From Coprothermobacterota bacterium (lineage in GTDB: Bacteria > Caldisericota > JANLFM01), in NCBI GenBank assembly GCA_026389455.1, contig JAPLHV010000180.1, positions 1-57,573 on the forward strand: 57,573 nt of DNA, in the 5' to 3' direction. Shown here piece after piece: positions 697 through 22,949 of the stretch. Position numbers and translations under genes: made by a program. Each line of letters opens with the position of its first letter. Within the stretch, counting starts at the first letter, position 1. A model generated the notes under the pieces. That model did no database searches, was not told the origin of the DNA, and was given only the letters and a program-made list of their open reading frames with translations.

Positions 697-1722
697 ATGA
701 AATGTGATCAGGACAAGGATGGCATTGACCACATCAACGTCTACTCCCAAGGAAAGACGGAGTTGGGAAAGATGTTGAGCAACTTCTACCGCCTCCCCGT
801 CGATATTGATGGGATTACGTTTCAGTCCCTAGAGGGCTACTGGTACTGGCTCTCAACCGGAAAGGTTTATGGGGAATTGCTTAACCTCTATGGATATAGA
901 GCCAAAGAGAGAGGCAAGCAATTGCCAAAGGTCTTGATGAGCGAAGGTGAGTTTCACTGCGCGATTCTTCGCGCCATGCTGGCCAAGGTCGAGCAACACG
1001 AAAACCTGGCAAAGATGCTGAAAGAATCTGCTCTTCCGCTGACACATTACTACGTGTTCAATGGAAAAGAAGTGGACGCTGGTTGTTCCTGGGTTCTTTC
1101 CGGGTGGGAAACCATCCGTAAGAACCTCAATAACGGAGTCAATCTAAAACCTCCAGTCGGAGTGCAGGAGAACTTCGACGGTCACCTCCCGACTGATCTT
1201 GTAAAGTTGGGGGGAATATCCCTATCTACCCCAAACATCAGCAATTTGGAGAATGGCATTTATACGTCCTCCAAATTGTGTACTTGTGGTCCAGACTCCA
1301 TGGATATTACTAGAGGCGGAGCGAACTCAGTGTTCGCACCTTCTTGGAATATCCTCAAGAACTTCAAAGCGAAGGCTATCTCAGCTAACCAGTACAAGAA
1401 ACTGTACTGGGAGGAAATGGCGTCCTCTTGGAGCGTTGATAAGTCACCCTTCAAAACTCTCGTTGCCAAGGCCGCACAACATCCAGTGGTGCTGGTCTGC
1501 TACTGCTCTACGGGGCAGTTCTGCCACCGGATCCTTTTGGCCAAGGAGATCTTGGCCAGGAGATTGGGCTGCAAATATTTAGGGGAGATCGGAATCGTTC
1601 AGTGGGTCATCTGCCCCCACTGTGCATTTCATCTCCCTACCGTCCTTCTGCAGAAGTTGCGGAAAGAACACCAAATCCAGCGGTGTCCTTCCTGTGGGGG
1701 CATGCTGGCAGCCAAACCTTAA
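697..1722 (+). CDS. NADAR-like domain fused to DUF488-like domain and a C-terminal Zn ribbon
   Basis: N-terminal HINVYSQGKTELGKMLSNF...FQSLEGYWYWL is the phage NADAR-like pattern. C-terminal FAPSW...LVCYC...FCHRILLA is the DUF488 pattern, followed by CPHC/CPSC. RBS AAAGGAG. Confidence 0.65.
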   Translation: MKCDQDKDGIDHINVYSQGKTELGKMLSNFYRLPVDIDGITFQSLEGYWYWLSTGKVYGELLNLYGYRAKERGKQLPKVLMSEGEFHCAILRAMLAKVEQHENLAKMLKESALPLTHYYVFNGKEVDAGCSWVLSGWETIRKNLNNGVNLKPPVGVQENFDGHLPTDLVKLGGISLSTPNISNLENGIYTSSKLCTCGPDSMDITRGGANSVFAPSWNILKNFKAKAISANQYKKLYWEEMASSWSVDKSPFKTLVAKAAQHPVVLVCYCSTGQFCHRILLAKEILARRLGCKYLGEIGIVQWVICPHCAFHLPTVLLQKLRKEHQIQRCPSCGGMLAAKP

Positions 1723-1826
1723 GGCTTGGGTGGTGGCCTCAACCACCACCCAGAACCCCAATACCGCCGACAACAAATGTCGGCACACTCAAATCTCTCC
1801 TGATCGAGAAGAAAGAGGTAAATGAA

Positions 1827-2986: not shown

Positions 2987-3331
2987 ATGAGAGTGATCAT
3001 TGCAGGCAGCCGCAGTTGCACTGACATACAACAAATAGAGGTTGCCGTTGCAGCCTCCGGCTTTAAGCCAAGCCTCATTATCAGCGGGTGCGCCAGGGGA
3101 GTTGACCGACTTGGCGAAACTTGGGCTTCCAACCATGGGATTCCCATAGAGAAATATCCAGCAAATTGGGACGCCTATGGCAAGTCAGCAGGGTACCGCA
3201 GAAACGCAGTTATGGCATCTAACGCCGATGTCCTCATTGCTGTCTGGGATGGGCACAGTCCCGGGACAAGACACATGATCGACACTGCCATTGGGATGGG
3301 ATTAAGTGTCTACATTCATCAGATCTCTTAG
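2987..3331 (+). CDS. SLOG superfamily protein (DUF2493/cpYpsA-like)
   Basis: MRVIIAGSR...IISGCARGVD...AGYRRNAVMA...WDGHSPGTRHMI; RBS AAGGAG. Confidence 0.85.
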   Translation: MRVIIAGSRSCTDIQQIEVAVAASGFKPSLIISGCARGVDRLGETWASNHGIPIEKYPANWDAYGKSAGYRRNAVMASNADVLIAVWDGHSPGTRHMIDTAIGMGLSVYIHQIS

Positions 3332-3776
3332 CTCAAACCAAGTGTTCGTTTTTGGATCAAACTCCACTGGATTTCATGGCGCTGGCGCTGCGGGATTTGC
3401 CTTCCGTGGCACTGCTGAAAACTCCTGGAGAAGTGATCCGTTCTTTCTGGCTGCCATGAAATCGCCGACCGGCAGCATGCTTCGCCTCGGCCGATGGGCT
3501 GTGTACGGAATAGCGCGTGGTTACCAGGTGGGTCGTGAGGGCAGATCGTATGCTGTCTGCACCATCGCTCGCCCGGGGCTGCTCAGGTCCGTCTCCTTGG
3601 ATGACATCAAGCAGCAGCTTACCGAGATGGCGAAGTTCGCCAAGCTCAACAGAGAGTTGCAGTTTCTATGCAGCAAAGTCGGATGTGGCCGCTCCGGCTA
3701 TGCGGAGAGCGAAATCATGGGCATTTGGCCAGAAATGCCAAGCAACGTGATCAATCCAAAGTGGTCAGAAAGGTAA
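3306..3776 (+). CDS. Macrodomain-like phage protein (A1S_2505-like)
   Basis: VFVFGSN..GFHGAGAA and KVGCGRSG motifs; start position uncertain. Confidence 0.7.
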   Translation: MSTFIRSLSSNQVFVFGSNSTGFHGAGAAGFAFRGTAENSWRSDPFFLAAMKSPTGSMLRLGRWAVYGIARGYQVGREGRSYAVCTIARPGLLRSVSLDDIKQQLTEMAKFAKLNRELQFLCSKVGCGRSGYAESEIMGIWPEMPSNVINPKWSER

Positions 3777-3783
3777 AACAAAG

Positions 3784-4113
3784 ATGTCATACTGTTTGAT
3801 TTGCAATACGGAAATGGATGACTATGGCGGCGGTTGCGATTGCAACCGTTTGTTCGTAGAGCACCTTATCTATCGAGATGGGGGCTTTCGCATGATAGCT
3901 GTCCTCATGCGCATGAGTGGGGTGAGCTTCCCCCTCATTTTCGATCTATTCCAAAGCCAAAGCATCAAAGTCCCACGCGACCTTGATATCCATAGAGCGA
4001 TTGGAATATTGTGGCGTAGACTTAAGAAGAACTTCCCGCCAGCTTACAAAAACAATCGTTTAATCCGCCCAAACACCAGCGTCATCTCCGATTGGCCAGA
4101 ATTCCCTGGTTAA
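3784..4113 (+). CDS. Hypothetical protein
   Basis: 109-aa ORF with N-terminal Cys cluster, tightly coupled to the upstream gene. Confidence 0.55.
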   Translation: MSYCLICNTEMDDYGGGCDCNRLFVEHLIYRDGGFRMIAVLMRMSGVSFPLIFDLFQSQSIKVPRDLDIHRAIGILWRRLKKNFPPAYKNNRLIRPNTSVISDWPEFPG

Positions 4114-4118
4114 ACCAA

Positions 4119-4165
4119 GCTGAAACGAAGGAGTAGGACAGCACTCCCACTACTTCAGATGCAGA
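4119..4165 (+). repeat. Highly degenerate hammerhead-related intergenic repeat (copy 1)
   Basis: GCTGAAA...GGAGT-AGGACAGC-ACTCC; same GACAG loop as the other copies with a compensated stem. Confidence 0.5.
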
Positions 4166-4389
4166 CAACTGTAATTTCCCCGGAGTTCAGAAAGGTAGAA
4201 GAGATGAATCGTATTTGTGTTTTTTGCGGAGATAAGTATGACCCGAATGACCTTCACCTGCAGGATGATCGCGAAACAGTGCTGTTCTGCGCACATTTTG
4301 GGAAGACTCTCACCGAAACGGAGCAGGCAATTGTTGAGGGTACGATCTGCACCCTTTGTGCCCTCAACGGGCAAATAGCCGGTAGGTAG
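4159..4389 (+). CDS. Small Cys-rich hypothetical protein
   Basis: CVFC and CTLC motifs; may start at ATG 4204. Confidence 0.5.
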   Translation: MQTTVISPEFRKVEEMNRICVFCGDKYDPNDLHLQDDRETVLFCAHFGKTLTETEQAIVEGTICTLCALNGQIAGR

Positions 4390-4393
4390 TAAA

Positions 4394-4446
4394 GCCGAAA
4401 TCTGGGGTGGTGACAGCGCCCCAGAATCTGAAACAAGAGATGAGGC
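4394..4446 (+). repeat. Degenerate hammerhead copy (copy 2)
   Basis: GCC-GAAA-stem III-ATC...GAGATGA-GGC; core CTGATGA mutated and stem I lost. Confidence 0.75.
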
Positions 4447-4453
4447 AAAAAAA

Positions 4454-4837
4454 GTGAACGAGAAGTTTGTCCCAACAAAAGAGCAGATTCAGGAATATCG
4501 GGAAGAAGAGTTATACGCAATGAGCGCTGAGCGCTCCTTGGAGAGCGCTACTGACAGGTACATGATGGGTTGTGATGAAGCCATCGAGGAAGTTGCCAGG
4601 TTGGCCTCCGCACTATACAAGGCCTGTGACAATCTATATGAGAAAGATGTAGACGCAGCCAGCGAGGGCATGGACAACAACGACTTCGCCCAGGTTTTTC
4701 TCGCGGTTACAACGCCAGAGAGAAGAATCGTAAAAAGGGCCATGGAACTGGTTCTCTCGCAAAGGAATTGCTTAGTGTTTGATGTGCGTCTGCCAGAGAG
4801 TTTCCTGTTCGGCAAATTCGACGATTTTCCTGGATAG
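4454..4837 (+). CDS. Hypothetical protein
   Basis: 127-aa ORF with GTG start after GAGG. Confidence 0.6.
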   Translation: MNEKFVPTKEQIQEYREEELYAMSAERSLESATDRYMMGCDEAIEEVARLASALYKACDNLYEKDVDAASEGMDNNDFAQVFLAVTTPERRIVKRAMELVLSQRNCLVFDVRLPESFLFGKFDDFPG

Positions 4838-4870
4838 CCGAAATCTGGGGTGGGACAGCGCCCCCACATC
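4837..4870 (+). repeat. Truncated hammerhead copy (copy 3)
   Basis: GCCGAAATCTGGGGTGGGACAGCGCCCC, i.e. GAAA and stem III only. Confidence 0.75.
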
Positions 4871-4895
4871 AACAATCCCGAGAAAGGAAAATCTA

Positions 4896-5174
4896 ATGAA
4901 TTTAGCATCAGATGGAATAGGTGAAGTTATAGGCGTTTATTCTACGCACGGTCATAAGTTCAACCGTGTGGAGTACAACATCAAGTATAGGGGTAATGAC
5001 ACGCTGTACACCCACATACGGTGGGAGTCAGCATGGATGGTAATGATCGGTGATGAGGTTTTGCTCCAAGCTGGGCAGATTATCAACGATACTTATCTCA
5101 ACGCGATACTCTACCGTTTGCAAAGAAGGCCTGAGTGGTGGATGAACCGCACAGAAACCATGGTTAAGATTTAA
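4896..5174 (+). CDS. Hypothetical protein
   Basis: ATG 4896 after AAAGGA; part of the 4779-5174 open frame. Confidence 0.55.
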   Translation: MNLASDGIGEVIGVYSTHGHKFNRVEYNIKYRGNDTLYTHIRWESAWMVMIGDEVLLQAGQIINDTYLNAILYRLQRRPEWWMNRTETMVKI

Positions 5175-5253
5175 GCCGAAATCTGGGGTGGTGACAGCGC
5201 CCCAGGATCTGCGCGTACAAAGGTTATCGCGCACTGATGAGGCAATACCTTGT
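5175..5253 (+). ncRNA. Type II hammerhead ribozyme
   Basis: Stem II GCC(5175-77)/GGC(5241-43); GAAA 5178-81; stem III 5181-5208; AUC cleavage triplet ending C5209; stem I TGCGCG/CGCGCA; CTGATGA 5234-40; loop I AAGGT complementary to 3' tail ACCTT (pseudoknot). Confidence 0.88.
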
Positions 5254-5807
5254 TAGGGAAGCTTCGAGCGGGCCTCCCCACCTCCTAAAGCCCGTACTAT
5301 GGTCGGCCCTCTCCCCACCCGCCCACCCTGATCTCTTCCTCACCGTGTGTATTGGTCGTAAGCCTTTGCCTCGTGGCGCTCCGCTCCGCTCCGCGCCCCT
5401 CGGCCAAAACTTCAGAAGAATAAACCGCACTCCCTCCCTTGCTTTCTGCTCAAACCTACTTCCCGCCCGATTAAGCCTCTGTTCGCCGCTCCCCATCACC
5501 AGGTCCAACCCTTGGTCGCAACAGCTCCCAGCCTCAGCTCGCTTCGCTCGCTTCGGCCTAACAACGACAGAAGAAACCTGCTTTACCCGCCCACCCATTT
5601 CACCGCCCATCCCCCACAGTCCACCCCTTTCCCACCCCTTCCTTACCCCACTTCCCACTCGTTTCAAACCAAACAAATTCAAGACCTCCCCAAAACCAAG
5701 CAAGGTCAAGAGCAGTGCGCCCCCGCTCTTTTGAGGGGGACGGAATGAGGTAGAAAAAAACCTCTCTTCCTTTCCCTTCCATGGTCCTCGCATCCATGGA
5801 TGGAGAA

Positions 5808-5862
5808 AGTCAAAGGCTAGTCAAAGGCTAGTCAAAGGCTAGTCAAAGGCTAGTCAAAAGCT
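5808..5862 (+). repeat. Five tandem 11-bp repeats (AGTCAAAGGCT), iteron-like
   Basis: Four exact copies plus one with a single mismatch, inside a ~750-bp non-coding region. Confidence 0.9.
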
Positions 5863-6024
5863 CTTCCCCCCGTTTTTTTGAGGGGGGAGGGGAGGGTAGA
5901 AAAAGGTTTCCCAAAGGTGCAGCGCGGTTCGCACCAAAACGGGCATGCCTAGTTCTACTTCACTTCAACCCCTCAAAAATCAACTTCCGTAGCGTTAGCC
6001 AGCGTTCCGGACAAAGGAGATGAA

Positions 6025-6666
6025 ATGGCCAAGACAGTGAAAGCAGTACCACCCTCTCCAGTAGCCGTGGAGCCCCCCATCGACAGCCTCGCGTTTTCAG
6101 AGGTTGTCCAGATTCTGCCGTCGCCTAAGACGGTTGTCTTTTCTGGAGCTCGCCCCCAGATGACCCCAGGCGGCTGGGACAAGACCAACGCCTTTGTCGT
6201 AGCGGCCAAGTGCTACCTCTTCAGCTACGTGGAGTTCCTCACAAAGCGTGGCTACTGCCGTTTCGTGACCGGTGGGAATCTCGGCAGCGATGAGTGGTTT
6301 GCCGATGCTGTTCTTTTCGCCAAGACGAGCAATCCCGACATTGCTTTCGAGCTAGTTCTTCCCTTTCATGGCTACGAGAAGGCATGGAAAGACGACACTA
6401 AACAGGCCTTCTCAGCGCTCTGTGAGAAGGCCGATAAAGTCTCCTACGCCGATGAGATCAACCCACCGCCGAAAAGCCTCGATGCAGCGCGCAAGACTAT
6501 CGCCAACCTGATGAATCGCAACTCCATTGCTGCCAAGATGGCCGACTTGATCGTTCTCTTCGGAGAAGACAAGCCTGTCACAGCGATGAAGATTGCCGCA
6601 AACGGGAAGCGGACAGTTAGCGTCAGCTTCGCCGGCGACAACAAGTTTCTGGCCCGCGAGGGCTAG
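6025..6666 (+). CDS. SLOG family protein (YpsA/DUF1273-like)
   Basis: FVTGGNLGSDEWFADAV...LVLPFHGYEKAW...RN pattern; RBS AAAGGAG. Confidence 0.75.
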   Translation: MAKTVKAVPPSPVAVEPPIDSLAFSEVVQILPSPKTVVFSGARPQMTPGGWDKTNAFVVAAKCYLFSYVEFLTKRGYCRFVTGGNLGSDEWFADAVLFAKTSNPDIAFELVLPFHGYEKAWKDDTKQAFSALCEKADKVSYADEINPPPKSLDAARKTIANLMNRNSIAAKMADLIVLFGEDKPVTAMKIAANGKRTVSVSFAGDNKFLAREG

Positions 6667-17474: not shown

Positions 17475-17687
17475 GCAGCAAACTATCGAAAACGAAAAAA
17501 ACTTGATCATCTTGAAAGAGAAGGCAACAGTTTTTTAGAAACATTAGCAAAAGGGGGTCACGTAATCGGCATCTGATTTATTCTGGAGAGGTTATTTCTA
17601 TTTCTCTTTCTTCTGAAAAGATTGATTCTATCTGTCGGGTATCCGACAATAACTTCATGAAATATGTTTTCCAAGGGAGAGGAAAAG

Positions 17688-20600
17688 ATGCGTAGAATAA
17701 TTGTAGGAAAAGTAACCTGTCTCGTTCTGATTATCTTCATGATCTCCTCTGCTTTCGTCCCTGGTTTTGCGTCCGGACATGAAAACAACTCCGGGTTTGT
17801 TCCGGAATATTCCTCCATTCAATCCACAGTTCAAAATAACTCCCTGGCTGCCGGCGCTGGTCAGACCCTCGGCCTGAAGGGGGACGGCACGGTCTGGGTT
17901 TGGGGAGACAACGGCAATGGTCAACTGGGTTTGGGGGACACCACCGACCGATCCACCCCAGTGCAGGTCACTGCCCTGGGCAACGATATAACAATCTTAG
18001 AAGCAGGTTCATACCATTCCCTTGCCCTGAAGGGGGACGGCACGGTCTGGGCCTGGGGATATAACGGCAACGGCCAGTTAGGGTTAGGAGACAATACTAA
18101 TCGCTATACCCCGGTGCAAGTCACTGCCCTAGGAGACAACGTGGTGGCTCTGACAGCCAATGGAGGCCACACTTTAGCCCTGAAGGGGGACGGTACAGTC
18201 TGGGCTTGTGGATACAACGGCAATGGTCAACTAGGGTTGGGGGACACTGCTGACCGCTCCAGCCCAGTTCAAGTACTCGCCCTAGGCAACAACGTAAAAG
18301 CCTTGACTACTGGTGAGTACCATTCCTTAGCTCAAAAGGAGGACAGCACGGTTTGGGCTTGGGGAAAAAATGACCACGGTCAGCTGGGGCTGGGGGACAC
18401 CATCAGCCGCTTAACCCCGGTACAGGTCACTTCCCTGGGTAGCAACGTGGCGGCAATGGCTGCCGGTGGGATGCATACCCTATCTCTAAAGGATGATGGT
18501 ACAGTCTGGGCTTGGGGATGGAACAACAATGGTCAGCTGGGGCTGGGGGACACAACCGACCGTCTCAGTCCTGTTCAGGTCACCGCCCTGGGAAGCAACG
18601 AAGTAGCTGTAGCTGTCGGCTGGATGCATACCATAACTCTAAAGGATGATGGTACAGTCTGGGCTTGGGGATACAACGGCAATGGTCAGCTGGGGCTGGG
18701 GGATAACACTAACCGATCCAGCCCAGTTCAGGTGCTCGCTCTAGGTAACAACGTAACGTCCTTAACCACTGGCGAGTACCATTCCCTGGCCTCGAAGGAT
18801 GACGGTACGGTCTGGGCTTGGGGAATGAACAACCATGGTCAGCTGGGGTTGGCAGACACCACAGACCGCCTCAGCCCGGTGCAGGTGCCTACCTGGCAGA
18901 GTCCACTGAACCCTCCCTCTGGCCTCACCGCAACGGCCGTTTCCTCAGGCCAGATCAACCTCTTTTGGATGGATAACTCCGGCAACGAGGAGAGCTTCAA
19001 TCTCGAGCGCAAGACCGGCAGCGGGGGAAGCTGGTCGCAGATCGCCACTGTCGGTGTCAACGTCACCAGCTACTCCGACACTGGACTTGCTTCTAACACC
19101 CCCTATTATTACCGCGTCTGTGCCTTCAGGGCCGCCGGCAACTCAGTCTATTCCAATGAGGCTTTTGCCACCACTTCGAACAATACCCAATATAATCAAA
19201 CCTTATTCAGTGGCTGGAACATGGTTACAGTTGGATTGCAGACACCACTTGCTCCCGCCCAATTGTTCGGCTCTAGTTTCCAAGCAATCTACCGTTGGGA
19301 ACCGATTGGAGGAACATATTTTACGCCACAAGCGTTGGAACCTGGACTAGGCTACTGGGTGAAAATGGCAGCGGCTACGACGATAACTGTCCAAGGCACT
19401 CCCCTCGTTTCCCGAACCCTCCCGCTTTCTACTGGATGGAATCAGGTTGGCAGTCCCTTCGGCTCCATTACCCCCTGGTCCACGGTGAAAGTGGCAAAAG
19501 AAGGAACTGAGTACTCAATAATGGAGGCTAAGCTGGCCGGCTGGATCATTCCTGCCTACTCTTGGAACGGAACCTCCTATGATGTAATAGACTACGAATC
19601 CTCAGCGATGGGCGTGGGTCAAGGATTCTGGATCAAGGCCAATACCGCGGGGATGTCCTTTTTGTTTGGTAACCTTATTCCTTCAAAGGCTTCGATCGCA
19701 GCTGGAGCATTCCATACCCTTGCCCTGAAGGGGGACGGCACAGTGTGGGCATGGGGATCAAACAGTGATGGCCAACTTGGGCTGGGAGACGGAGCCACCC
19801 GCTACTATCCAGTGCAAATCACTAGCCTGGCTGATAATGTATCATCCCTGGCTGCTGGTGGGTACCATACTGTTGCCTTGATGAAAGATACCACGGTCTG
19901 GGCTTGGGGAAGCAATTTTTCTGGCCAGCTGGGAGTGGGGGACTCCACTTCCAGCAATAGCCCGGTACAGGTCACTTCCCTAGGTAGCAATGTAGTAGCT
20001 CTTGTCGCGGGATGGGGGTATACCCTAGCCCTAAAAAGTGACGGCACAGTCTGGGCTTGGGGAGAGAACAGCAATGGTCAACTGGGTTTGGGGGACACCA
20101 CTCATCGCTCCATCCCGGTACAGGTCACTTCCCTAGGAAGCAACGTGACAGCCTTGACCGCCGGTGGGTGGCATACCCTTGTGATGAAGGAGGATGGTAC
20201 AGTCTGGGCTTGGGGAAACAATGGCTCTGGCCAGCTAGGACTGGGAGACACCACCGACCGTCTCAGTCCTGTTCAGGTCACCGCCCTGGGAAGCAACGTG
20301 ACAGCTCTCGCCGCTGGCGGGGACCATACTTTGGCTCTGAAAAGCGACGGCACGGTCTGGGCTTGGGGATGGAATAGCAATGGTCAGCTGGGTTTAGGGG
20401 ACAAAACTAATCGCTCCATCCCGGTACAGGTCACTTCCCTGGGAAGCAACGTGACAGCCTTGACCGCTGGTGGGTGGCATACCCTTGCGATGAAGGAGGA
20501 TGGAACAGTCTGGACTTGGGGATGGAACAATCTTGGTCAGCTGGGGTTGGGGGACACCACCGACCGATCCACCCCAACAAAAATAACTTCCCTAAATGGC

Positions 20601-20759
20601 AATATGACAGGCTTGACCGCTGGTGGGTGGCAGACTTTTTCCGTGAAGGGGGATGGCACGGTCTGGGCTTGGGGCTGCAACGGCAACGGCCGACTGGGGC
20701 TGGGAGACACCACCAACCGTATCAGCCCTGTGCAGGTACCTATCAATCTCAACCCGTAG
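17688..20759 (+). CDS. Secreted RCC1/BLIP-II repeat protein with FN3 domain
   Basis: Signal peptide, ~7 RCC1 repeats (LKGDGTVWAWGxNxxGQLGLGD), FN3 (PSGLTATAVSS...YYYRVCA), then ~7 more RCC1 repeats. Confidence 0.92.
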   Translation: MRRIIVGKVTCLVLIIFMISSAFVPGFASGHENNSGFVPEYSSIQSTVQNNSLAAGAGQTLGLKGDGTVWVWGDNGNGQLGLGDTTDRSTPVQVTALGNDITILEAGSYHSLALKGDGTVWAWGYNGNGQLGLGDNTNRYTPVQVTALGDNVVALTANGGHTLALKGDGTVWACGYNGNGQLGLGDTADRSSPVQVLALGNNVKALTTGEYHSLAQKEDSTVWAWGKNDHGQLGLGDTISRLTPVQVTSLGSNVAAMAAGGMHTLSLKDDGTVWAWGWNNNGQLGLGDTTDRLSPVQVTALGSNEVAVAVGWMHTITLKDDGTVWAWGYNGNGQLGLGDNTNRSSPVQVLALGNNVTSLTTGEYHSLASKDDGTVWAWGMNNHGQLGLADTTDRLSPVQVPTWQSPLNPPSGLTATAVSSGQINLFWMDNSGNEESFNLERKTGSGGSWSQIATVGVNVTSYSDTGLASNTPYYYRVCAFRAAGNSVYSNEAFATTSNNTQYNQTLFSGWNMVTVGLQTPLAPAQLFGSSFQAIYRWEPIGGTYFTPQALEPGLGYWVKMAAATTITVQGTPLVSRTLPLSTGWNQVGSPFGSITPWSTVKVAKEGTEYSIMEAKLAGWIIPAYSWNGTSYDVIDYESSAMGVGQGFWIKANTAGMSFLFGNLIPSKASIAAGAFHTLALKGDGTVWAWGSNSDGQLGLGDGATRYYPVQITSLADNVSSLAAGGYHTVALMKDTTVWAWGSNFSGQLGVGDSTSSNSPVQVTSLGSNVVALVAGWGYTLALKSDGTVWAWGENSNGQLGLGDTTHRSIPVQVTSLGSNVTALTAGGWHTLVMKEDGTVWAWGNNGSGQLGLGDTTDRLSPVQVTALGSNVTALAAGGDHTLALKSDGTVWAWGWNSNGQLGLGDKTNRSIPVQVTSLGSNVTALTAGGWHTLAMKEDGTVWTWGWNNLGQLGLGDTTDRSTPTKITSLNGNMTGLTAGGWQTFSVKGDGTVWAWGCNGNGRLGLGDTTNRISPVQVPINLNP

Positions 20760-21906: not shown

Positions 21907-22845
21907 TTAGTGCAAGAACTTGGTTGGCGTGAATTTCGCATGTGTCTTTTTCAAGTCTTTTAAATTCAGATGCACATATTTCACCGCAGCCGCTTGGGTT
22001 TTATCACCTAACAATTCTTGGATTTCTAGTACCGTCGCTCCCGCCCTCGCTGCTGCTGTCGCGAAGGAATGACGAAAGAGATGCAAATACAGGCGGATGC
22101 CTGTTGCCTTTTCCAACCGACGGATTATACCGCGTAACCCTCCATAATAAAGCCGGCTCCCGTCGCTATTTTGAAATAACCATGGTGATGAGGGAGAAGG
22201 CCGATGGCGAAGATACAACTCAATAGATTTTTTTGTTGGTTTATCCAGGCAAACTGGTCGCAGTCCCGTTTTTCCATTCACCACGAAGGTGTTATCTACA
22301 AGATTAATATTCCCAATCTGCATAGAGATCAACTCACCAGCGCGGATGCCGGTTGAAATAAGAATCCATACAATGGCAGTGTCACGTTGCCATTGCCGGG
22401 TTTTCCGAGCTGCGTCTATTACTTTTTGGTTTTGCTCGTCCTCAAGGATAGGGAAATTTCTTTCTTGAGTTTTCAGAAACGAAATCCCATCAAAGAAATT
22501 CTTGCCGTATTTCCTTGACGCAACAAATTTGTAAAGTGCCCGAAGTGCGCGCAGATAAGTATTGATTGATTCTGCACTCATTCTCGCATTGCCTCTATAT
22601 CCTGGGCATTTTCGCAGGTGGTCAATAAAGTCTTCGATATCCTCTCGCGACTTTGGCTCTCTACCTCCTAGAAATGACCCAAATCGACGAAAAGCATCCT
22701 CATAATCTTTGATTGTGCGCATACTTCTGTCTAATCGCTCGCGGCTGTCCAAGAAGCGTTTCATCGTTTCTTTAAATAGGAATTTGGTAGTGTTGCTCTT
22801 GCGAGCAGTTTGGTTAGTCCTTTCGGATTCTGTAGTTATCAACAT
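21907..22845 (-). CDS. Tyrosine recombinase/integrase
   Basis: TGIRAGE (R), GKTG (K), HLFRHSFAT (HxxR), LLGD, KYVH (Y). ATG 22845 chosen from the promoter position. Confidence 0.92.
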   Translation of the reverse strand: MLITTESERTNQTARKSNTTKFLFKETMKRFLDSRERLDRSMRTIKDYEDAFRRFGSFLGGREPKSREDIEDFIDHLRKCPGYRGNARMSAESINTYLRALRALYKFVASRKYGKNFFDGISFLKTQERNFPILEDEQNQKVIDAARKTRQWQRDTAIVWILISTGIRAGELISMQIGNINLVDNTFVVNGKTGLRPVCLDKPTKKSIELYLRHRPSPSSPWLFQNSDGSRLYYGGLRGIIRRLEKATGIRLYLHLFRHSFATAAARAGATVLEIQELLGDKTQAAAVKYVHLNLKDLKKTHAKFTPTKFLH

Positions 22846-22851
22846 GTTCAA

Positions 22852-22881
22852 ATAGTAACAAAAACTACATAACAATGTCAA
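22852..22881 (-). promoter_or_regulatory. sigma70-type promoter of the integrase
   Basis: TTGACA-18 bp-TACTAT on the minus strand. Confidence 0.6.
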
Positions 22882-22897
22882 GAACACCAAATAGAAC

Positions 22898-22949
22898 CAT
22901 CTGACTCTTAATCAGAGGGTTACAGGTTCGAGTCCTGTGCGATCCACCA
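22898..22949 (+). other. att site: 3' half of tRNA-Lys(CTT)
   Basis: CTGACTCTTAATCAG anticodon arm, ACAGGTTCGAGTCCTGT T arm, ends CCA. The 5' acceptor strand and D arm are absent. Confidence 0.88.

Follow-up and report, generated by a model that had tools for sequence, protein, structure and literature searches.

A predicted type II hammerhead and three partial copies of it follow four small genes of a phage-like element in a Coprothermobacterota bacterium genome

The window analyzed here is an entire contig (JAPLHV010000180.1; 57,573 nt, or 57.6 kb) of a Coprothermobacterota bacterium, taken from a genome assembly of 2.63 Mb that is 89% complete. Within an integrated phage-like element in its first part lie genes A to D, four successive small open reading frames (ORFs) on the plus strand, and four related repeats begin 0-6 bases 3' of their stop codons (coordinates are given in Table 1). 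In copy 1, GCTGAAA starts at 4119, 6 nt beyond the TAA of gene A, and in copy 2, GCCGAAA starts at 4394, 5 nt beyond the TAG of gene B; the GCCGAAA of copy 3, at 4837, has as its G the last letter of the gene C TAG, and that of copy 4, at 5175, directly abuts the TAA of gene D. An earlier note made from the sequence alone had placed the repeats in this way and had remarked that two of the genes end in FPG and a stop codon; both points were verified, the latter for genes A and C, and an alignment showed that the DNA likeness extends about 15 nt into both of these genes.

Pattern searches showed that the repeats are restricted to 1.1 kb of the 2.63-Mb genome. The 17-mer GCCGAAATCTGGGGTGG occurs three times in the window, a count reached in none of 100 shuffles, and the pattern GCYGAAA-N6-14-GACAGC gave five matches in the genome (none in a backwards control), namely the four copies and one elsewhere that is probably due to chance. 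With a hairpin model, R1, of which all four window copies are training members, these copies scored 28-40 bits, compared with 19 bits at most elsewhere in the genome. Two subtypes of the repeat take turns in the array. One comprises copies 2 and 4, which are alike at 38 of 39 positions (97% over 39 nt); the other comprises copies 1 and 3, both of which have a 6-nt loop, GGACAG, and CCCAC on the 3' side of the stem and stand behind an ORF that ends in FPG-stop. Tandem duplication of a two-gene unit was ruled out as the source of this alternation, because the A/C and B/D protein pairs were dissimilar in protein comparisons. The earlier description of the copies as being in graded decay is loosely right, but the grades do not follow the order of the copies: divergence is greatest in copy 1, an internal deletion that spares both ends marks copy 2, copy 3 holds the 5' half only, and copy 4 is intact.

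Judged by its sequence, copy 4 has every feature described for type II hammerheads in the sections of Perreault 2011 (PMC3088659) on which we draw throughout. The core segments CUGANGA and GAAA and a triplet ending in U-H are present, the three helices stand in the type II order with 24 of 24 pairs standard both in the window and in the related contig L144 (see below), and five pairs, with at least four expected of the type, can form between loop I and the nucleotides after stem II, where the same sections report a loop I/3' tail pseudoknot in most type II hammerheads. Copy 4 is predicted to cleave between C5209 and U5210. It was aligned end to end (model positions 1-66) with Rfam Hammerhead_II (RF02276), with all core positions matched and a 15-nt insertion in stem III relative to the model, and 14 control genomes gave only sub-threshold matches to that family. 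A strict type II descriptor matched two places in the genome (both strands), none in the reversed genome and none in 12 first-order Markov simulations of the genome. The second match (G000, contig C20, 3100-3167) is weak and A/T-rich, has minimal 4-bp stems, and probably reflects chance. Finally, CTGATGAGGC has one exact match in the window, which is copy 4, and stem I is likewise found in copy 4 only, so that the earlier claim that the last copy alone keeps stem I and CTGATGA is borne out.

The other three copies lack one or more of these parts. In copy 2 the two ends of the ribozyme survive, on the 5' side as far as the cleavage triplet and on the 3' side as GATGAGGC, but stem I is gone and GA stands in place of C3 and U4; this copy is therefore an internal deletion of a full ribozyme. 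The fold of copy 2 (-16.9 kcal/mol) was equalled by 2 of 200 shuffles and that of copy 1 (-9.7 kcal/mol) by 10 of 200; as training members of R1, copies 1, 2 and 3 scored 28.2, 39.7 and 30.1 bits, respectively. At the place of the CUGANGA core, copy 2 reads GAGAUGA and copy 1 reads CAGAUGC, and the type II descriptor, even when relaxed, matched none of the three. Copies 1-3 should not cut, because either the entire 3' half or both stem I and the CUGAUGA core are missing, and we take them from their sequences to be cleavage-dead. A contig from an RNA library (X11) crosses copy 3 unbroken, from 4818 to 5014, which agrees weakly with the lack of cutting there, since the library may contain DNA. 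In copy 2, GAGG (4442-4445) sits 8 nt upstream of the GTG start of gene C.

The one relative identified, L144, is a 4-kb contig from a different genome assembly; it was the only match of a specific pattern among genome contigs, and the same pattern had no match in metagenome contigs and none in viral contigs. The genome of L144 lies outside the 93 genomes of the window's phylum that were compared here; its contig could be mis-binned, and we draw no conclusion on host range from it. The hammerhead block of the window, which starts a few bases at most from the stop codon upstream and loses its likeness near 5340, is 93% identical to L144 DNA over 167 nt, compared with 70% for the phrog_2072 gene, 67% for the YAcAr region and no DNA-level match for the YpsA gene. 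Thus, the intact ribozyme and its downstream tail are the best-conserved stretch between the window element and L144. The 82-nt ribozyme differs at four positions, none in the core: two form a compensatory change of a G-C to an A-U pair in stem I, a third turns a U-A pair of the pseudoknot into U-G and keeps the pairing, and the fourth falls just past the pseudoknot. Across the two sequences 48 of 48 cells are paired, compared with 35-50% when the partners are slid; the covariation shuffle control is powerless with two sequences (250 of 500). The non-coding extension 3' of the hammerhead, which makes up about 85 nt of the block, had no Rfam match, and its fold was no better than those of shuffles. 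An antisense ORF (5171-5281) was rejected as the cause of the conservation, with four amino-acid changes between the window and L144 and lengths of 36 and 148 aa, respectively. In the loop of a hairpin predicted in the extension lies CACCTCCT, which resembles an anti-Shine-Dalgarno sequence.

Between the matching flanks, the window holds four genes and three dead copies, and L144 holds one gene (gene X) and one dead copy. Gene X and gene C gave a Smith-Waterman score of 52, which none of 500 shuffles reached (28.1 +/- 4.5), and on this score we read gene X as a diverged homologue of gene C; BLASTP (E 2.9) did not reveal the homology. No counterparts of genes A, B and D were found in L144. The order of the SLOG and phrog_2072 genes is opposite in the two elements (window 2987-3776; L144 2549-3799, minus strand), and the SLOG domain of L144 is fused to a 140-aa N-terminal part that is dissimilar to genes A-D.

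Searches for further relatives were negative within their scopes. A search of 60 relatives for the DNA of 3784-5260 found nothing apart from one 35-nt match (G041), and the hammerhead block was absent from the remaining 92 genomes compared from the window's phylum and, among 363 genomes of the order of L144, was found in the genome of L144 only. Of the short block hits in that order, two (G334 and G138) were read as chance, and the other two match the C-rich tail only. No credible hammerhead or hairpin was found in loci with phrog_2072 homologues (10 metagenome, 80 viral): descriptor matches there had 3-bp stems only and were attributed to chance, the best R1 hit (22.7 bits) lies inside an ORF, and Rfam at E<=1 reported only tRNAs in the 10 metagenome loci, a setting that copy 4 itself would escape. 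Neither an alignment of YpsA run against viral contigs nor blastn against phage records returned a match. Scanning viral contigs with a 14-mer yielded at least 116 stretches, of which those listed were all chance, mostly coding sequence.

The window stretch, in whole or in part, is present in sequencing runs from five studies, and we examined contigs from two DNA runs and two RNA-library runs, in which assembled contigs cannot show RNA ends. Run X10 holds several strains. At its loose ends (3372, 3412, 3495 and 4390), the sequence is of the L144 type letter for letter, as compared by eye, and at the repeat at 4390 it is gene X that is joined. Another X10 contig joins a gene-B-like 3' end, the last 12 letters of which equal window 4380-4391, to the window from 4836, and from the depth table it appears to run to about 4887, through copy 3 to the gene D leader. 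This single contig is suggestive of a strain without gene C and one repeat, which is what recombination between copies 2 and 3, with 19 identical bases in common, is expected to yield. Altogether, gene content varies at the repeats among related elements. The gene-plus-ribozyme modules proposed in the earlier note are upheld to the extent that other genes are joined to the repeats at 4390 and 4836 in X10 contigs and that gene content differs in L144 and X10. The RNA-mediated capture proposed with them finds no support, since copy 2 is an internal deletion with no cleavage-site junction and DNA recombination between direct repeats explains the variants. The interval 5040-5735 has no RNA-contig cover in runs X11 and X12, which is evidence neither way, and the low shares of words in the RNA runs say nothing about habitat.

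The proteins of genes A-D had no match among Pfam and PHROG families. Only the self-match was found for the gene A protein among 1.84 billion cluster representatives and for the gene C protein among 5.8 billion proteins, and viral contigs held no relatives of either. A variant of gene A, about 93% identical, is present in run X10, for which difference counts cover listed differences and records only. The 23 listed differences favor third codon positions (14 third, 7 first, 2 second), and gene A is therefore a real coding gene. A 14-nt repeat, TCAGAAAGGTA[AG]AA, stands at 3765-3778, before the start of gene A, and at 4187-4200, inside the 5' end of ORF B. Because TCAGAAAGGTA at 4187 is a copy of the ribosome-binding repeat upstream of gene A, the start of gene B may be the ATG at 4204, which would make the spacer of copy 1 90 nt long.

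The hairpin has outlasted the catalytic parts of the unit. The dead copy of L144 has lost GAAA, but its hairpin is kept, with an unchanged loop and compensatory changes in the stem, in agreement with the earlier idea that the hairpin persists beyond catalytic need. It has downstream words in common with copy 2 of the window (CTGTAACAAGAG and CTGAAACAAGAG, respectively), and the deletion form common to the two is therefore older than the split of the two elements. We aligned six hairpins, four from the window and two from L144, of which five are distinct. In this alignment 84.4% of cells are in standard pairs and four of nine pairs have changed on both sides; the covariation score of 0.344 was reached by 1 of 500 shuffles, and slid controls were 42-58% paired with scores of at most 0.21. 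Six of seven loop columns are invariant, and copies 1 and 4 differ at 10 of 18 stem columns and at none of the 6 loop columns that they share. The four window copies alone gave no pair changed on both sides (in the MAFFT register) and no significant covariation. Thus, the compensatory stem changes of the earlier note (GGGGTG/CGCCCC versus GGAGT/ACTCC) include one true double change, but they carry no statistical weight on the four window copies and gain it with the two L144 hairpins. Our results show covariation in the hairpin and loss of core parts in copies 1-3, and we infer that in the dead copies selection has kept the hairpin of stem III and its loop, G(N)GACAG.

We consider it fairly probable that the locus is an operon of accessory genes punctuated by hammerheads, in which the last unit works, the upstream units are dead, DNA recombination reshuffles them, and the hairpin is selected. 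Genes A-D would be transcribed as a single RNA, which the terminal hammerhead is predicted to cut after C5209. The mRNA of genes A-D would be left with the stem III hairpin as its end, and the conserved non-coding RNA downstream would be released. No intrinsic terminators or promoters were found inside the array beyond chance level. The three upstream units would be derivatives of the same ribozyme without the parts for cutting, and dead copies would arise and reshuffle through DNA recombination between hammerhead copies, so that genes would be gained and lost at the repeats in related elements. The hairpins just past the stop codons would be kept by selection, probably as a signal that stabilizes a 3' end or a segment, or as a binding site for a factor. 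The most economical role appears to be protection or demarcation of mRNA segments, and the fixed loop hints at a specific partner. As a tentative extension, the hairpin of stem III with its fixed loop, G(N)GACAG, may be a functional RNA module in itself, a signal for binding or for processing/stability that stands just past stop codons, is carried by hammerheads of this lineage and remains selected after the death of the ribozyme, with the units serving as portable gene linkers and the terminal unit releasing the conserved 85-nt RNA. If this is true, phage-like elements swap single genes through ribozyme units.

Several observations weigh against the reading as a punctuated operon. On Hammerhead_II, copy 4 reached 21.3 bits, short of the gathering cut-off (37), and its E-value was 0.28 although only 2 kb were searched. 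L144, a 4-kb contig, is the sole relative found for which DNA is available, each of the X10 variants is known from a single contig, and recent exchange, not constraint, could account for the 93% block. The hairpin covariation comes from five distinct, related sequences, and relatedness alone can beat shuffles; a loop without function could also stay identical through gene conversion by the intact copy, and the hairpin of copy 3 folds no better than its shuffles (58 of 200 as good). Some of these points also speak for another account, in which the partial copies are neutral, functionless wreckage of duplications and deletions, alike through recency and gene conversion from copy 4. We hold this to be rather unlikely. 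The near identity of copies 2 and 4 fits a recent duplication or conversion, as the copy 3 fold and the absence of counted covariation within the window fit decay, and Perreault 2011 (PMC3088659), in the sections used here, allows that some clustered hammerheads are possibly non-functional. However, the deletion form of copy 2 also exists in L144 and predates the split of elements with proteins only 32-68% identical, the stem of the L144 dead copy still pairs through two double and two one-sided changes with its loop unchanged, and copies 1 and 4 have diverged in stem columns and not in shared loop columns.

The hairpins could, alternatively, be DNA sites for a site-specific recombinase, as attC is in the cassette arrays of integrons. 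Repeated units of an ORF and an imperfect hairpin with variable gene content do resemble a cassette array, and the element encodes a tyrosine recombinase (21907-22890). This enzyme, the only recombinase found, lies 17 kb away beside a tRNA fragment, like an ordinary phage integrase; the hairpin is 25 nt long, and no integron-type core sites were seen by eye. In addition, the repeats are hammerhead-derived, the compensatory changes and pseudoknot of the full copy are sensible only in RNA, and the apparent variant without gene C is the expected outcome of plain homologous recombination between direct repeats, which is enough to account for the variants. We therefore regard recombinase sites as highly improbable. 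Continued cleavage of copies 1-3, by a variant fold or with the CUGAUGA of copy 4 acting in trans or at long range as the earlier note had conceived, is equally improbable: GCYGAAA and stem III are kept, ATC remains in copies 2 and 3, and the fold of copy 2 is a three-way junction with GCC/GGC closing it, but the window holds a single CUGAUGA-GGC strand that is not complementary to the sequence beyond the sites at which copies 1-3 would cleave, the stem I strand CGCGCA has no complement past the ATC of copies 2 and 3, copy 2 carries GA for C3 and U4, and the X11 contig, weakly, speaks against a cut in copy 3.

The reading that we favor, a punctuated operon with a selected hairpin, builds on known systems. 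Short repeats at gene boundaries coincide with the gain and loss of single genes in phage modular exchange and in integron attC arrays; the repeats here differ in being ribozyme-derived, and neither a dedicated recombinase nor a core site was found. Hammerhead arrays that flank prophage genes are already known, and, according to the sections of Perreault 2011 (PMC3088659) used here, it is common in prophages for a single gene or a short block of genes to have several hammerheads at its flanks. The prophage hammerheads treated there resemble the present case in their prophage-like region near an integrase, their place between small genes of inconstant identity, their type II topology with a loop I/3' tail pseudoknot, and their proposed role in processing a polycistronic phage transcript. 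In contrast to the clusters in those sections, only one of four units here is a complete hammerhead, in a phage-like context with an integrase, and the rest are truncated with a covarying stem III hairpin and a fixed loop; moreover, the complete unit and about 85 nt downstream are far more conserved than the neighboring genes. Among the papers listed on hammerheads in connection with gene cassettes, recombination or polycistronic phage transcripts, none dealt with truncated copies with a selected hairpin, which is not proof of absence. In the portion of a 2019 review drawn on here (PMC6765202), the roles of bacterial hammerheads are described as still largely elusive. The locus separates the parts of a ribozyme unit, in that three of four gene junctions can dispense with the catalytic parts and one hairpin is kept with compensatory changes. 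The function of such units may thus include the hairpin left at the 3' end of an mRNA and not the cut alone, and ribozyme copies may act as recombination points for gene turnover.

Table 1. Coordinates of the features of the array, its setting in the window, and the related contig L144 (its features are numbered in their order along its minus strand).
Feature	Position	Strand	Description
Gene A	3784-4113	+	109 aa, ORF; ends EFPG-stop
Copy 1	4119-4164	+	GCTGAAA, hairpin 4127-4150, loop GGACAG; CAGATGCAG in place of CTGATGAGG
Gene B	4159-4389	+	76 aa, ORF (61 aa if start is ATG 4204); Cys-rich
Copy 2	4392-4446	+	GCCGAAA, stem III hairpin 4401-4425 (perfect 9 bp), ATC, GATGAGGC at 4439-4446
Gene C	4454-4837	+	127 aa, ORF, GTG start; ends DFPG-stop
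Copy 3	4836-4872	+	GCCGAAA, hairpin 4844-4867 (6 bp kept, stem base gone), ATC; without 3' half
Gene D	4896-5174	+	92 aa, ORF; ATG 4896 preceded by AAAGGA
Copy 4, complete type II hammerhead (predicted)	5174-5251	+	Rfam alignment, own descriptor, L144 comparison
Copy 4 stem II	5175-5177/5241-5243	+	3 bp, open
Copy 4 GAAA	5178-5181	+	
Copy 4 stem III	5181-5190/5198-5208	+	10 bp, one bulge, loop-closed
Copy 4 C17	5209	+	ends AUC cleavage triplet
Copy 4 stem I	5210-5215/5228-5233	+	6 bp, loop-closed
Copy 4 CUGAUGA	5234-5240	+	
Copy 4 pseudoknot, loop I with 3' tail	5220-5224 with 5247-5251	+	5 bp; tail begins 3 nt past stem II
Conserved non-coding extension 3' of hammerhead	5252-5340	+	part of 167-nt block, ~85 nt
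YAcAr SLOG-family protein	2987-3331		Pfam/PHROG
phrog_2072 protein	3306-3776		Pfam/PHROG
YpsA-like SLOG-family protein	6025-6666		Pfam/PHROG
AAA ATPase, DUF2201 protein, GP88-like protein	within first 23 kb		Pfam/PHROG
Tyrosine integrase	21907-22890	minus	adjoins tRNA fragment
L144 (1) phrog_2072 homologue		minus	68% identical protein
L144 (2) 254-aa protein		minus	C-terminal part YAcAr-like by eye; DNA match 67%
L144 (3) dead repeat		minus	before gene X
L144 (4) gene X		minus	149 aa
L144 (5) complete hammerhead (predicted)		minus	after gene X
L144 (6) C-rich non-coding stretch with short tandem repeats		minus	
L144 (7) YpsA-like gene		minus	32% identical protein

The first 23 kb of the window have a lower G+C content (~50% vs ~59%) and encode phage-type proteins, as found by Pfam and PHROG searches, and nearly all ORFs of at least 90 aa there are on the plus strand. 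In our reading, an integrated phage-like element extends over the window from position 1 to about 22.9 kb and is truncated by the start of the contig. A partial tRNA match (22892-22938; 27.2 bits) lies directly beside the integrase gene and is probably a remnant of the attachment site that marks the end of the element.

A C-rich stretch of 770 nt in the element is free of genes and holds AGTCAAAGGCT five times in tandem at 5808-5862. Its relative place matches that of AGTCAA-type repeats in L144 (~1690-1725, minus strand), and the repeats of both elements could be iteron-like sites. Two hairpins in the same stretch, at 5722-5740 and 5866-5888, have C5-6/G5-6 stems and T-rich loops, and neither is followed by a T run. 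Farther downstream, still inside the phage-like element, 17664-20759 encodes an RCC1-repeat protein of 1031 aa with an fn3 domain, which consists almost wholly of RCC1.

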